Positions 2,752 through 39,320 of a DNA stretch of 64,000 nt are shown here, piece after piece. Origin of the DNA: a virus (lineage: Duplodnaviria > Heunggongvirae > Uroviricota > Caudoviricetes); the IMG/VR virus record IMGVR_UViG_3300037467_000966. One strand, 5' to 3'. The notes under the pieces are model-generated. The model was not told the DNA's origin. It was given only the letters and a program-made list of their open reading frames with translations, and searched no databases. Both the position numbers and the translations under genes were made by a program. How positions within the stretch are numbered: the stretch's first letter is position 1; every line of letters begins with the position of its first letter.

Positions 2752-3448
2752 GGTATAACCTTCCTTCTATACCCTCTTGCATCGCAGAGCCTAATGCCAT
2801 AACTGGTTCCTGCTGTGTGACGTTGCAGATAATCATAAGGCCCATAAAGTGCATTTCATGAACATCTGTCGTATGCATCTGTCTTGCACGGCTCCGCGCC
2901 TCTAACCAATAGGAACGATAATGCTCTCTGTCCAGACTAATCCACATTGGTCGGTCATGATACCTTGCTTGGTAGCGGTCAACTTCCATCATTATCTTTG
3001 TTAAGATATCTGGAATGGTCTGTTCAATACTTTCCCTTTGTGGATTAACTGCCCCAACGAATGGGCTGCCTGCATACCTGTAGACTTCCTCTCGGATACG
3101 CTGGTCAAGTCTTTCAGCATTTATCCTTGCATAGTCTCTTGTCGCATCTGCTACGGTATCGCTCCAATAAACATTGTTGTTTAATGTCAGTGGGCCTGTC
3201 ATAACGTCTGCATTGATTGTAAGGTCAACAGGCACGGTTACGCTATGCACAGGATTGACAGAACCTACTTCACGGATAGGCTCAACACTTCTTGTAATGT
3301 TTGCAGCTTTAATACTCTGCATCCCCATGATTTCTTTCCATGTACCGTCAGCTTTCTTCATCATAAACTTCACATCATGCGATGGCTTCTTTGCTACGGG
3401 CTTCCCTTCTTCATCCTGCAGCCGCCATAAGTTTTCTTTATTACTCAT
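2744..3448 (-). CDS. Hypothetical protein with N-terminal tail-tube-like segment
   Basis: IMGMQSI...ITRSVEPIREVGS resembles gp19-like tube motif; remainder unassigned. Confidence 0.35.
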   Translation of the reverse strand: MSNKENLWRLQDEEGKPVAKKPSHDVKFMMKKADGTWKEIMGMQSIKAANITRSVEPIREVGSVNPVHSVTVPVDLTINADVMTGPLTLNNNVYWSDTVADATRDYARINAERLDQRIREEVYRYAGSPFVGAVNPQRESIEQTIPDILTKIMMEVDRYQARYHDRPMWISLDREHYRSYWLEARSRARQMHTTDVHEMHFMGLMIICNVTQQEPVMALGSAMQEGIEGRLYRE

Positions 3449-3458
3449 ACCAACACTC

Positions 3459-3884
3459 CTATTTCATTAATGGCTGGATTAAATCTTTACCCCTGAATCC
3501 TTTTCGGTATCGGGCCTGTATAGTAGGATACTTAATGCCTGACACCTCTGACCATTCTTTAAGGCTCTTTGATACACCATCAATTTCAATCTGCATAGCT
3601 GGTCTCTTTGTGGAATGAAACTCTTCCTTTGTTCTCCACCTGCAATTCCATGGAGAAAAGTCTGCGCTTTCATCAATCAGGCAAAGCATCAATCCATCTT
3701 TAAATCCAGTGTCAGTTGCCCAAAGATAGAAGTTAACAGGGTCTTCTAACCAGATGTCACATACCTTAATGCCGCGACCACCATAGCGATGATAATTGTT
3801 GTTGTTTGGATTGTAACACTTGTTCTTCATTTGTTTCCAGATACAATAGATTCTATCCCTCTTTAAACCGTGTCTGTAATTCAT
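3459..3884 (-). CDS. HNH-type endonuclease-like protein (degenerate) with C-terminal HTH
   Basis: CYNPNN..Y..YGGRGIKVC..W and NCRW motifs; the usual IDRIDN core is replaced by LCLIDE. Confidence 0.7.
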   Translation of the reverse strand: MNYRHGLKRDRIYCIWKQMKNKCYNPNNNNYHRYGGRGIKVCDIWLEDPVNFYLWATDTGFKDGLMLCLIDESADFSPWNCRWRTKEEFHSTKRPAMQIEIDGVSKSLKEWSEVSGIKYPTIQARYRKGFRGKDLIQPLMK

Positions 3885-8075: not shown

Positions 8076-8231
8076 TTAATCTTCCTTCTTCTCATACTTC
8101 TTTAGCAAATCTTCAACCGCTTCCTCGAATAGGCGGGACTGCGGAATTCTTGTCTCATCAGAAATCTTCGCAATGGAATCCTTAAGATTCTCTGGAAGAT
8201 ATGTTGTGAAGCGAACTTTCTGCATCTCCAT
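8076..8231 (-). CDS. Ribbon-helix-helix DNA-binding protein, 51 aa (not in ORF track)
   Basis: GGAGGT RBS; MEMQKVRFTTYLPENLKDSIAKISDETRIPQSRLFEEAVEDLLKKY is a typical beta-strand plus two helices RHH pattern. Confidence 0.8.
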   Translation of the reverse strand: MEMQKVRFTTYLPENLKDSIAKISDETRIPQSRLFEEAVEDLLKKYEKKED

Positions 8232-8257
8232 TTCCCTTACCTCCTTTATTTATATAT

Positions 8258-8286
8258 ATCATAACATATCATAACATGTTTGTAAA
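8258..8286 (-). promoter_or_regulatory. Sigma-A promoter of RHH gene with tandem TTATGATAT repeats
   Basis: TTTACA-17-TATGAT; direct repeat ATATCATAAC x2 overlaps spacer and -10. Confidence 0.7.
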
Positions 8287-8320
8287 CTAAAAAGATTATT
8301 CAGATAATCGTAAAAATCCA

Positions 8321-8349
8321 TTGACAGAAAGCTCCAAACTGGTTCTGAT
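8321..8349 (+). promoter_or_regulatory. Sigma-A-like promoter for phoH arm
   Basis: TTGACA-17-TCTGAT; weak -10. Confidence 0.5.
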
Positions 8350-8412
8350 GTAACCAAGAGGTAGTCAAACTATCTCCGAGGGTTAATAGAACACCTACCA
8401 GGGGGAGTCACA

Positions 8413-9750
8413 TTGAATATTGTAGCCTTAGACACTAACGTACTTTTAGACAGAACTTTAGAACAAGTACTGGAAACTTTTGAAGAACCAACTCAGGTCA
8501 TCATTCCGCTTGTTGTATTGGAAGAAGCAGATACATTCAAGAAAGGATTCGAAGCCAAGAATGAGTACGCACGGGCGCTTAACCGTTACCTTGATTCATT
8601 AAGAAAGATTGGTAAGCTGCACGAAGGCGTTGAAGTCGGAGACCACATTGTGCTAGTCGATATTAAGATAGAAGAACTAGACCTGGACAAGCCCGATTAT
8701 AAAATCATTTTAACGGCTAAGAAGCAGGGAGCCTTACTGATTACTCAGGACATCAATGTTCGAGTGGTTGCTGATGCTCTTGGAGTAGAATCATCTTCCT
8801 TTGCGCCAAACGATGTCAATGTCAATGAGCTTTATAAAGGCTACATAAATGTTGACATTGATGAAGACCAAGTACAACGGTTCTACAAAGATGGTTTCCT
8901 TGCCATTGATACAGTAGAAAAAGACGGAACCATTCAAGCATTACTCAATAACCAATTCGTTGTCATGACTGATGACTTTGGTGGAGAACACGAAGGCATT
9001 TACAAAGAAAGAGATAAGGGTGTTCATGCTCTTGACCGCTTCTATGAGGCATGGGGATTCAAGCCTAAGAAGGACAAGAAAGGAAAACCAGTACGTGAGC
9101 AGAAGTTCTTACTTCACTTACTGCTTGACCCAGACATTCACTTTGTATCAGCTATCGGGCCATCAGGTTGCGGTAAAACATTCTTAGCGCTGGCGGCAGC
9201 ATTAGAACAAACCTTACGTGATGACACATACAACAAAGTAACAGTTATGCGCCCACTGATTGCAGTAGGGAATAACGATATTGGATTCCTACCTGGAGAC
9301 AAACTTGAAAAGCTAGAGCCATGGATGGCATCCACGTTCGATGCACTAGATGTTCTCTTAGAAAAATATGAAAGCAAAGATGGAGACGACTGGATGGGCG
9401 GCAGCAAAGCAAAAGTGTACAGCCTTATCCAAAACGGAAAGCTTGAGCTTGAAGCAATGGCTCATATCCGTGGTCGTTCCTTACCATATCAGTTCTTAAT
9501 CATTGATGATGCACAGAACTTAACACAACATGAAGCAGTAACCATTATTACTCGTGCTGGAGAAGGCACAAAAGTAATATTCCTCGGAGACCTAAGCGAG
9601 AAGCAGATTGACAACCACAGATTAACACCATCAAGCAATGGTCTTGCTTACGTTATTGACCGATTCAAAGGGGAAGACATCGTGGGTCACATCACTCTGA
9701 ATACAGTCGTTCGTTCAGGACTTGCACAACTAGGAGTGGAAAAATTGTGA
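8413..9750 (+). CDS. phoH: PIN-PhoH fusion (PhoH2-type RNase/ATPase)
   Basis: PIN LDTNVL, EEAD, PDYKI, TQD; PhoH GPSGCGKT, RGRS, IIDDAQN, TRAGEGTKVIFLGD. Confidence 0.92.
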   Translation: MNIVALDTNVLLDRTLEQVLETFEEPTQVIIPLVVLEEADTFKKGFEAKNEYARALNRYLDSLRKIGKLHEGVEVGDHIVLVDIKIEELDLDKPDYKIILTAKKQGALLITQDINVRVVADALGVESSSFAPNDVNVNELYKGYINVDIDEDQVQRFYKDGFLAIDTVEKDGTIQALLNNQFVVMTDDFGGEHEGIYKERDKGVHALDRFYEAWGFKPKKDKKGKPVREQKFLLHLLLDPDIHFVSAIGPSGCGKTFLALAAALEQTLRDDTYNKVTVMRPLIAVGNNDIGFLPGDKLEKLEPWMASTFDALDVLLEKYESKDGDDWMGGSKAKVYSLIQNGKLELEAMAHIRGRSLPYQFLIIDDAQNLTQHEAVTIITRAGEGTKVIFLGDLSEKQIDNHRLTPSSNGLAYVIDRFKGEDIVGHITLNTVVRSGLAQLGVEKL

Positions 9751-15131: not shown

Positions 15132-15632
15132 ATGAACATTTTAGGTATTGACCCATCCACTGCTTCAAGTGGATTTGCAGTAATGAATGAACACAGAGAA
15201 CTTCTTGCTTATGGAGTAATCAAACCAAACAAGAAGAAGATGACTATTGGACAGCAGGCAGCAATGCAATACAATACACTGGCTAAAGTCATTGAAGAGT
15301 GTGCAGTAGAATATATCCTATGTGAAGACCAACATGGTGGACTCAATAAGGATACATTAAAGAAGCTTGCTCGTACATCTGGACTCATGGTACTGCTTGC
15401 AGGGCAATATGATTTGCCGTTCGAACTGATGCATCCCAGCTCTTGGAGAAAGATTACCCATGGGAAAGGTAATGCTAAGAAAGAAGATACTCTTAACTGG
15501 GTAAATGAAGTGTACGGTCTGGAATTGACAGACAAAGAAAACGATATTGCCGATGCTATAGGCATTGCTTATGCTGGCGTATCATACTTTACGGGGGAAG
15601 ACAATGGAGATACTGGAGAAAAAATTAGTTGA
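15132..15632 (+). CDS. ruvC: RuvC-like Holliday junction resolvase
   Basis: ILGIDPS...GFAV, CEDQ, PSSWRK...G.AKKED, DIADAIGIA. Confidence 0.88.
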   Translation: MNILGIDPSTASSGFAVMNEHRELLAYGVIKPNKKKMTIGQQAAMQYNTLAKVIEECAVEYILCEDQHGGLNKDTLKKLARTSGLMVLLAGQYDLPFELMHPSSWRKITHGKGNAKKEDTLNWVNEVYGLELTDKENDIADAIGIAYAGVSYFTGEDNGDTGEKIS

Positions 15633-37344: not shown

Positions 37345-37520
37345 TGATATGTTGTTTGGCGACAGGTACTACTTAGCTCTCTCTCCGTGTAGCTAAAAAT
37401 ATGTTGTCAGCTTCTTGTCGCCGCTGACTGTCTATGTTTGATGGCCCACCACTTGCTCTTTACGGAAGCAAGAAACCGTATCTGTTTAGTCTAAGGTTTA
37501 GACTTTGCAGAGGTCTGCAA
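37345..37520 (-). ncRNA. Candidate structured RNA (several hairpins, two possible pseudoknots) downstream of tRNA-Asp
   Basis: At least five helices found by eye; no ORF; family unknown. Confidence 0.4.
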
Positions 37521-37674: not shown

Positions 37675-37734
37675 TGATGCAGGCAGGTGGACTTGAACCA
37701 CCGCCGTTCTAGAATAGCCGTACCATGTACCTGC
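37675..37734 (-). ncRNA. 60-nt tRNA-like element: acceptor stem and T arm, no D stem or anticodon arm
   Basis: GCAGGTA/TGCCTGC acceptor, GGTGG-TTCAAGT-CCACC T arm, 3' A-TCA; only 25 nt between acceptor and T arm. Confidence 0.7.
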
Positions 37735-37737
37735 ATA

Positions 37738-38019: not shown

Positions 38020-38499
38020 TTAGTCTTCTTCCCGTTCTAGAGGAACGGTCTCTTTGCCGTCTTGGACTAGCTTTTGACTAATCCAAGCTGGGAATGTGAT
38101 GTTATGTATACCGTTAGCAGAACCATCGGTCATGCCGCCTGTATGATGCTCTTGGCAAAGCACCATCATATTACGGATATCGTCAACGCTAGTAAGAGGT
38201 TTGTTTCTTAATAGTTTTCCGTATCCATATACATCCCATTCTTCCACGAAGTCTTTCAACTTCTGCATGTCTAGGACATTTTCTAATGACCATTCACCGC
38301 CGTAGTGATGAACCTGTAGCTCGTCAGTTGAACCACATACATAGCAATGATAGTGACCATCTTCTCGAAGTCTTTTCTTAGACTCTCTGAACATAGAACT
38401 TTCTTTGCGTTGAACGTGCTCTGGCGTATGAACGATTTCAGTTAGGTGTCTGACTTGGTCATGAGCACCTACCATCTTCTTCTGTTCCATAGCAGTCAC
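38020..38499 (-). CDS. HNH-family nuclease-like protein
   Basis: CYVCG...LQVHH...NMMVLCQEHH...GIH. Confidence 0.75.
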   Translation of the reverse strand: MTAMEQKKMVGAHDQVRHLTEIVHTPEHVQRKESSMFRESKKRLREDGHYHCYVCGSTDELQVHHYGGEWSLENVLDMQKLKDFVEEWDVYGYGKLLRNKPLTSVDDIRNMMVLCQEHHTGGMTDGSANGIHNITFPAWISQKLVQDGKETVPLEREED

Positions 38500-38559
38500 A
38501 TCCTATAGCAGTATGCCATAAACGTAACCTGTTACTATGAAACTATCAAGTATTATTTA

Positions 38560-38631
38560 CTGCTCTGGCAGGATTCGAACCTGCGACCTGCGGATTAACA
38601 GTCCGTCGCGCTACCACTACGCCACAGAGCA
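38560..38631 (-). tRNA. tRNA-Asn(GTT), CCA not encoded
   Basis: TGCTCTG/CAGAGCA acceptor; loop CTGTTAA; GCAGG-TTCGAAT-CCTGC T arm. Confidence 0.95.
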
Positions 38632-38778
38632 AAGGTGATATAGGGAACCTAGGTTAACCAAACAAGAAAGGCGCTGTACCAAAAACCTCTGCGGGAGGGA
38701 AAAATGTACAGCTATCACGAAAAGGAGATAATCAATATGAAAGGAGTGTTATATGCAATTACTAGGTTCCCCTTCACA
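38632..38778 (-). ncRNA. Candidate sRNA / tRNA leader with several anti-SD motifs
   Basis: Closing stem 38643-38652 with 38762-38771; inner stem 38673-38679 with 38706-38712; CACTCCTTTC, TCTCCTTTTC, CCCTCCC and GCCTTTC motifs; promoter upstream. Confidence 0.5.
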
Positions 38779-38784
38779 CTATCT

Positions 38785-38814
38785 ATACAAACCATTTTTT
38801 GAGTGTTCTGTCAA
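38785..38814 (-). promoter_or_regulatory. Sigma-A-like promoter for tRNA-Asn leader/cluster
   Basis: TTGACA-18-TTGTAT; spacer resembles promoter at 8321. Confidence 0.55.
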
Positions 38815-39217: not shown

Positions 39218-39241
39218 AAAAAAGCCACCCCGAAGGATGGC
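39218..39241 (-). terminator. Intrinsic terminator
   Basis: GCCATCC-TTCG-GGGTGGC then T6. Confidence 0.8.
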
Positions 39242-39285
39242 CTTTAAATCCGAACTTTATAAATTAATCAGGAGTTGGTTGGTAT
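39218..39285 (-). ncRNA. Candidate ~68-nt sRNA with 5' anti-SD seed
   Basis: Lies between consensus promoter 39292-39320 and terminator 39218-39241; 5' region CCAACCAACTCCT; no ORF. Confidence 0.55.
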
Positions 39286-39320
39286 ACTTGAAGTATAACC
39301 GATGCATCGCTGTCTGTCAA
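39283..39320 (-). promoter_or_regulatory. Near-consensus sigma-A promoter with palindrome over -10/+1
   Basis: TTGACA-17-TATACT; TATACT-TGA-AGTATA inverted repeat at 39283-39297. Confidence 0.8.

Follow-up and report, generated by a model that had tools for sequence, protein, structure and literature searches.

A candidate family of structured RNAs with predicted exposed anti-Shine-Dalgarno motifs, usually upstream of tRNA genes, in Bacillus-type jumbo phages

Introduction

Base-pairing small RNAs (sRNAs) of known mechanism are, to our knowledge, few among the large phages of Gram-positive hosts. The c4 RNA of phages P1 and P7 is matured by RNase P. It is an antisense RNA that acts in trans by blocking a ribosome-binding site (RBS), with the ant mRNA as its target (PMC12197685); the same review never mentions Bacillus. 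Among bacterial RNAs, the sRNAs of Firmicutes with C-rich regions include RoxS, FsrA and CsfG of B. subtilis (PMC8216469) and RsaE and RNAIII of S. aureus (PMC8216469, PMC4152353), and LhrC binds the Shine-Dalgarno (SD) sequence through three redundant CU-rich sites (PMC4132741).

Here we describe an element on the minus strand of a viral DNA stretch of 64,000 nt (the window), which a preliminary description had read as a promoter-driven leader displaying four anti-SD motifs. The element is very probably a real conserved RNA, and it appears to represent a new structured RNA family whose function, as read from sequence, would be of a kind already known.

Genomic context and distribution

The element belongs to the 264-kb genome of a Bacillus-type jumbo phage. 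Judged by its primase, the nearest relative with a name is Bacillus phage vB_BauM_KLEB27-3 (47% identical), which has the same gene order. The host is probably a spore-forming member of the Bacillales, because the phage encodes a SigE/SigK-like sigma factor; this protein of 474 aa (L266 748-2172, equivalent to G000 127747-129171) has a long C-terminal extension, and its N-terminal part is ~50% identical to the counterpart in phage Goe8. The element is flanked by an 80-aa ORF and tRNA-Asn (Table 1). No second copy was found in its own genome, and the DNA contigs compared over it contain no variant inside. Genes for TROVE/Ro60, CsrA and Hfq were not found in the phage genome.

Relatives of the primase were used to fetch the syntenic region. 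Seven further full copies are present at the same locus (L021, L112, L113, L114, L115, L232, which is the same as L233, and L234), in phages whose primases are 57-89% identical to that of this phage, and a sequence-only model (R2) retrieves all eight copies, from which it was itself built, at E <= 1e-16. The variant loci L025 and L030 give weak R2 matches and keep the promoter and an ACCUCC(C/U)UUU motif. Neither R2 nor the earlier model search detected a copy in the complete relatives G001 and KLEB27-3. The structure line of the structural model R1 was one column off (29% paired at slide 0, 88% at slide +1), and the R1 negatives are weaker than they appear.

Neither the gathering thresholds nor an E cutoff of 10 gave an Rfam match over the element, and the homologue L113 had none at E up to 5. 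Searches with blastn against isolated phages returned tRNA matches and short start-region matches only; in viral contigs, the P1 pattern matched nothing but palindromic repeats that have no relation to the element, and the core pattern had one partial match there and none among species genomes. Three Bacillales chromosome records held no copy and a single weak match (E 0.09), over the start region of a small gene which we take to be SR1P. Loci fetched with an HNH gene as anchor were not homologous to the element. Three records listed as plasmids (L265, L267, L268) resemble chromosomes or chromosome pieces (5.5 Mb; dnaG-rpoD; sigE-sigG).

Table 1. Features of the element and its immediate surroundings, in window coordinates.
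Feature	Position	Strand	Basis or property
Clade-specific promoter: TTGACA (38814-38809), 14 nt, TGG, TTTGTAT (38791-38785); A/T-rich upstream	38785..38814	-	conserved motif
Core RNA, 129 nt, closed by P1; likely transcript ~38780-38632	38643..38771	-	MFE -34.0 kcal/mol, z -3.75
P1 5' arm, paired to 38652-38643	38762..38771	-	9-13 bp stem in 8/8, sequences differ
Anti-start unit 1: CAU (38755-38753), 6-nt spacer, CUCCUUU (38746-38740), C	38739..38755	-	predicted p(unpaired) 0.91, opening 0.7 kcal/mol
Anti-start unit 2: CAU (38739-38737), 9-nt spacer, CUCCUUU (38727-38721)	38721..38739	-	predicted p(unpaired) 0.72
Conserved hairpin: P2, U-rich internal loop, P3, loop CCGCA	38673..38712	-	covariation, conservation
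Variable 3' pyrimidine linker, GCCUUUC here	38653..38672	-	comparison of copies
P1 3' arm	38643..38652	-	pairs with 38771-38762
tRNA-Asn(GTT)	38559..38632	-	ARAGORN and Rfam

Fold and conserved motifs

The copies share a fold in which P1 (9-13 bp) joins the two ends. Inside it, an open 5' region leads to P2 (6-8 bp), which a U-rich internal loop separates from the short-looped P3, and a variable 3' linker follows; the seven homologue cores measure 120-138 nt, with folding z scores of -3.1 to -6.3. Both stems of the preliminary description, the 10-bp closing stem and the inner 7-bp stem, were recovered as P1 (Table 1) and P2 (38712-38706 with 38679-38673). Among the seven alignable copies, 48 of 49 P2 cells are paired and five of the seven columns show double-sided changes, a result reached in 0 of 20000 shuffles, which ignore relatedness; P1 also covaries across the eight copies. 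P3 is CCUC/GAGG (38698-38695 with 38689-38686), invariant in seven copies and replaced by CCUGU/ACAGG in L115, and the purines that open the internal loop, A-G, are swapped to G-A in L232 and L234. The P2/P3 hairpin is the most conserved part of the RNA, and SD pairing does not explain it.

All four of the anti-SD motifs described earlier are present, but only two of them are both conserved and predicted to be exposed: CCCUCCC is caged in the hairpin and GCCUUUC is variable. Conservation among homologues, which had been proposed as a check, holds for CUCCUUU, which we take to be the core of the Bacillus 16S rRNA 3' tail and which is kept in all eight copies, once or twice in each. It is predicted to be accessible (p(unpaired) 0.72-0.99, opening 0.1-1.9 kcal/mol) and lies 4-8 nt 5' of P2 in seven of the eight. 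Because CTCCTTT is rare, with just 8 further occurrences in 105 kb of the element's coding strand, chance is unlikely to have placed two copies 19 nt from each other. The sequence CACUCCUUUC of unit 1 is present in five of the eight homologues. CCUCCC, in turn, forms the 5' strand of P3 (p(unpaired) ~0.34, opening cost 5-9 kcal/mol) and has a compensated stem in its place in L115; that seven copies keep it unchanged next to a P2 whose bases covary freely points to either a protein-binding site or a caged seed. The copies do not conserve GCCUUUC, but a pyrimidine motif of some kind occupies the 3' linker in six of them: ACCUC(C) stands in a hairpin loop there in L114, L232 and L234, whereas L113 and L115 lack such a motif. 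The element thus has the conserved SD-complementary motif of anti-SD sRNAs as a functional class and, by prediction, its single-stranded state, to the differing degrees just given for CUCCUUU and CCUCCC. The earlier reading of a discrete structured RNA on the C/U-rich strand with conserved unpaired anti-SD motifs, the expression of which we infer, is supported by the eight homologues and their covarying stems.

Absent from that reading is an anti-AUG at start-codon spacing. A CAU stands 5-10 nt 5' of the motif in 7 of 17 motifs against a background of 12% (binomial p 0.002, with variant loci counted and copies non-independent), and with this spacing the open region often reads as a tandem antisense of SD-spacer-AUG. 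L113, L114 and L232 lack the anti-AUG, and in L234 its spacing is off. A third anti-AUG, 5' of CCCUCCC, was rejected, as it is present in two of the eight copies.

Promoter and downstream genes

What remains of the TTGACA promoter proposed earlier is a clade-specific form, TTGAC-N15-GGTTT-NN-AT, that is conserved in relatives, but a canonical -10 is absent at 16-18 nt. The usual A at -11 is also missing, and a sigma-70 promoter scan does not list the site. The motif precedes the RNA in seven relatives, with a one-base variant in L112, and every full copy is preceded by TTGAC-N15-GGTT(T)-NN-AT or something very near to it; the form occurs three times within a 41-kb stretch of KLEB27-3, and a promoter-pattern search gave chance matches only. 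TTGAC-N15-GGTTT would be an active promoter, and our guess is that a phage factor recognises it; the missing canonical -10 makes it a lead of its own on transcription control in these phages.

The tRNA-Asn gene lies directly downstream, as had been noted, and the same order is seen in L021 and L113, with tRNA-Pro in its place in L112 and L115. Another folded RNA, in which ARAGORN finds no tRNA, follows in L114 and L232, and an ORF in L234; across the family, a neighbouring tRNA is usual and not obligatory. Release by RNase P at tRNA-Asn was an earlier proposal that fits this genome, where it is plausible and where 5' processing of the tRNA would define the 3' end of the RNA, but with two homologues lacking a detectable adjacent tRNA and one preceding an ORF, it would not be a rule for the family. 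A scan found no terminator 3' of P1 in the window.

Several other elements were seen in and around these tRNA clusters. An HNH-type gene in the window (38020-38499, minus strand; 52% identical to the AR9/PBS1 versions) lies within the tRNA cluster, as do HNH-type genes in L009 and L010. The clusters of L009 (~1195-1265, ~1620-1740) and L010 (~3420-3555) also contain stem-closed cassettes starting with ACAGCAAT, two of which hold apparent circularly permuted tRNA parts; we take these cassettes to be reminiscent of the skipping-rope motif. Downstream (3') of tRNA-Asp in the window, a non-coding, multi-hairpin segment (37345-37520, minus strand) has a weak wcaG score (E 0.02), and L025 and L113 contain its GTCAGC/GCTGAC hairpin as well. 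ARAGORN does not call several degenerate tRNA-like elements that have a T-arm and an acceptor-like stem; they lie at 37680-37735 of the window (minus strand), in L026 (13180-13260) and in L232 (14268-14355). A conserved structured non-coding element of ~170 nt, which has no Rfam match, stands near the end of the tRNA region in L113 (14670-14840), L114 (15065-15205), L112 (15900-16035), L232 (14755-14900) and L025 (14515-14650). L112 has an abiF RNA match just over the gathering score within its tRNA cluster (15447-15483), and L115 an anti-Pycsar Apyc1-like gene (8131-8862).

Candidate targets

The 9-nt matches reported for two genes, with starts at 3448 and 22962, are present, in that AGGAGTGTT lies in both RBSs, but they are of a generic kind (20 of the 291 predicted start regions of the phage contain AGGAGTG), and since both sites read TAGGAG, not AAAGGAG, the U-run pairs poorly with them. 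With generic matches and no orthologous target that co-varies, these two genes are not supported as targets. Among 14 core orthologue families near the locus there was no clear co-varying top target, and no long exact complement was found elsewhere in the genome, the best being 13 nt. Against start regions of phage or Bacillus, the real spacers had no advantage over shuffled versions, except for unit 1 on its own genome (p ~0.02 in one of six tests), and a full Bacillus chromosome, not a proven host, gave no match above control. Five small genes clustered at G000 148978-150636 have a common ribosome-binding box, AAGGAGTG.

Some 35-40% of start regions, in phage as in Bacillus, are predicted to pair with the RNA at <= -10 kcal/mol after the opening cost. 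AAAGGAG starts make up 9.4% (47/501) in the RNA-carrying phages against 16.7% (107/640) in three relatives in which no copy was detected (p 3e-4 by Fisher's test, though the gene caller was crude and the independent genomes were few and of unequal base composition). Two samples of Bacillus chromosome give 11.4% (p 0.30 against the RNA-carrying phages). Selectivity for host over phage was rejected on the latter comparison, and an early-gene RBS class was rejected as target, AAAGGAG starts being scattered. The host shutoff put forward earlier finds no counterpart in the duplex energies, which are equal on phage and Bacillus start regions (Bacillus being not a proven host); selective shutoff is unsupported because neither a conserved target nor a host-versus-phage bias was found.

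A second sRNA candidate lies 450 nt upstream (window 39218-39320, minus strand), with a canonical promoter and a terminator and with a 17-nt anti-RBS seed that nine relatives share without change and L025 has in altered form. Such a seed is as expected of a single-target RNA; an invariant core of 7 nt, as in the element described here, would fit many targets or a protein.

Discussion

We lean, a little beyond even odds, towards a broad SD-masking sRNA that would work like RoxS, FsrA or LhrC while standing outside those families. A clade-specific phage promoter would transcribe this trans-acting sRNA at the head of a tRNA transcript, from which tRNA 5' processing would probably free it, and P1 would join its ends and hold one or two unpaired CUCCUUU(C) seeds. 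These seeds, equivalent to the core of the 16S rRNA 3' tail and often preceded on their 5' side by an anti-AUG at start-codon spacing, would base-pair to ribosome-binding sites of the AAAGGAG type in competition with the 30S subunit, so that translation of many different mRNAs, from the phage, the host or both, would be initiated less often. The invariant U-rich/CCUCCCG hairpin may serve as a protein-binding site or as a caged anti-GGGAGG seed.

The invariant 7-nt core is compatible with a protein ligand as well. The RNA may be a decoy, a mimic of the 16S rRNA 3' tail that would sequester a nuclease of host defence or another protein recognising that tail, as part of a counter-defence cassette co-expressed with the tRNAs; the invariant core is the 16S tail core with free flanks, the element adjoins phage tRNAs, and mycobacterial toxins that cut the anti-SD region have been reported (PMC12620021; PMC12274833). 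We nevertheless regard it as improbable, for most copies read CACUCC or UCUCC and not the 16S ACCUCC, no helix-45 mimic is conserved, the anti-AUG enrichment indicates mRNA, RelE1 cleaves within 30S/70S particles, and no such Bacillus toxin was found in the literature surveyed. Equally doubtful is a generic competitor of the 16S tail, whose exposed anti-AAAGGAG, caged anti-GGGAGG and variable 3' seeds would cover most Bacillus SD types and re-route ribosomes in an RNA-based takeover of the host; the lower use of AAAGGAG in RNA-carrying phages is a weak hint in its favour. The units of each phage resemble antisense copies of real start regions, unit 2 and L115 have a nine-base spacer stretch in common, and the neighbouring sRNA (39218-39320) exemplifies anti-RBS RNAs in the clade, as would suit an sRNA pairing with one or few genes in the host or outside the compared region. 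That narrow choice of targets is likewise unlikely, given spacers that vary freely where the neighbouring sRNA keeps its seed, the lack of a co-varying target and the absence of an above-control match in the full Bacillus chromosome.

Less probable still is a role in the tRNA transcript as a structural leader or as a scaffold for protein, with a protein bound to the hairpin and the pyrimidine tracts as linkers: in seven of the eight copies the element lies no more than ~10 nt from the predicted start, and it usually stands before a tRNA or tRNA-like RNA and is best conserved in its hairpin, but the invariant CUCCUUU and the anti-AUG bias would go unexplained, and L026 and KLEB27-3 have tRNAs after the same promoter without the element. 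The plus strand folds equally well (z -3.3) and carries AAGGA motifs and three RBS-ATG pairs in the window, so that a GGA-rich CsrA sponge, as the preliminary description had suggested, or a short mRNA with tandem RBS-AUG pairs might be imagined. Both are highly improbable: the conserved promoter and the tRNAs are oppositely oriented, which together with the stem G-U wobbles, four of them on the C/U strand and a single, terminal one on the opposite strand, favours the minus strand and argues indirectly against transcription of the GGA-rich strand as a Csr/Rsm sponge; the ATGs are not conserved, and the scan gave no plus-strand promoter upstream of the element. A plus-strand peptide was rejected, being not conserved.

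If broad SD masking is correct, phages can tune or seize translation through a copy of the ribosome's own anti-SD; if the decoy is, a new class of RNA would be added to a tRNA-type counter-defence cassette. The family is in either case well bounded and new, with a simple, testable seed.

Membership in described families was assessed with Rfam models. RoxS/RsaE, FsrA, CsfG and LhrC gave no match at E up to 10, the 6S RNA covariance model none over the element, and CsfG of B. velezensis (the reverse of Rfam ylbH) has a terminator at its end and no match to the R2 model. Bacterial Y RNAs and 6S RNA resemble the element in having paired 5' and 3' ends around a pyrimidine-rich loop and in lying near tRNA genes; as a Y RNA it would lack both an Rfam match over the element and a TROVE/Ro60 gene in the genome. 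With c4 it has in common that a phage RNA would act in trans by blocking an RBS, whereas the target of c4 is defined, that of the phage element is not, and Rfam gives no match. The Cuckoo/CcsR motif, CCUCCUCCC, lies in tandem hairpin loops. These RNAs of Alphaproteobacteria are alike in their repeated anti-SD-like motif and unlike in that the phage RNA has CUCCUUU in an open multiloop, not CCUCCUCCC (PMC4615179). Listeria LhrC1-5 have redundant CU-rich anti-SD sites in each RNA and a stem able to open on target binding, as the phage RNA would, whereas the latter is single-copy, folds differently and has no sequence match to them. From the C-rich-region sRNAs of Firmicutes the phage RNA differs in its seed, CUCCUUU in place of UCCC/CCCC, and in ends that are closed by P1, without a terminator, within a tRNA transcript; it resembles them in its similar size, its several anti-SD pyrimidine motifs predicted to be single-stranded and its probable Bacillus-type host.
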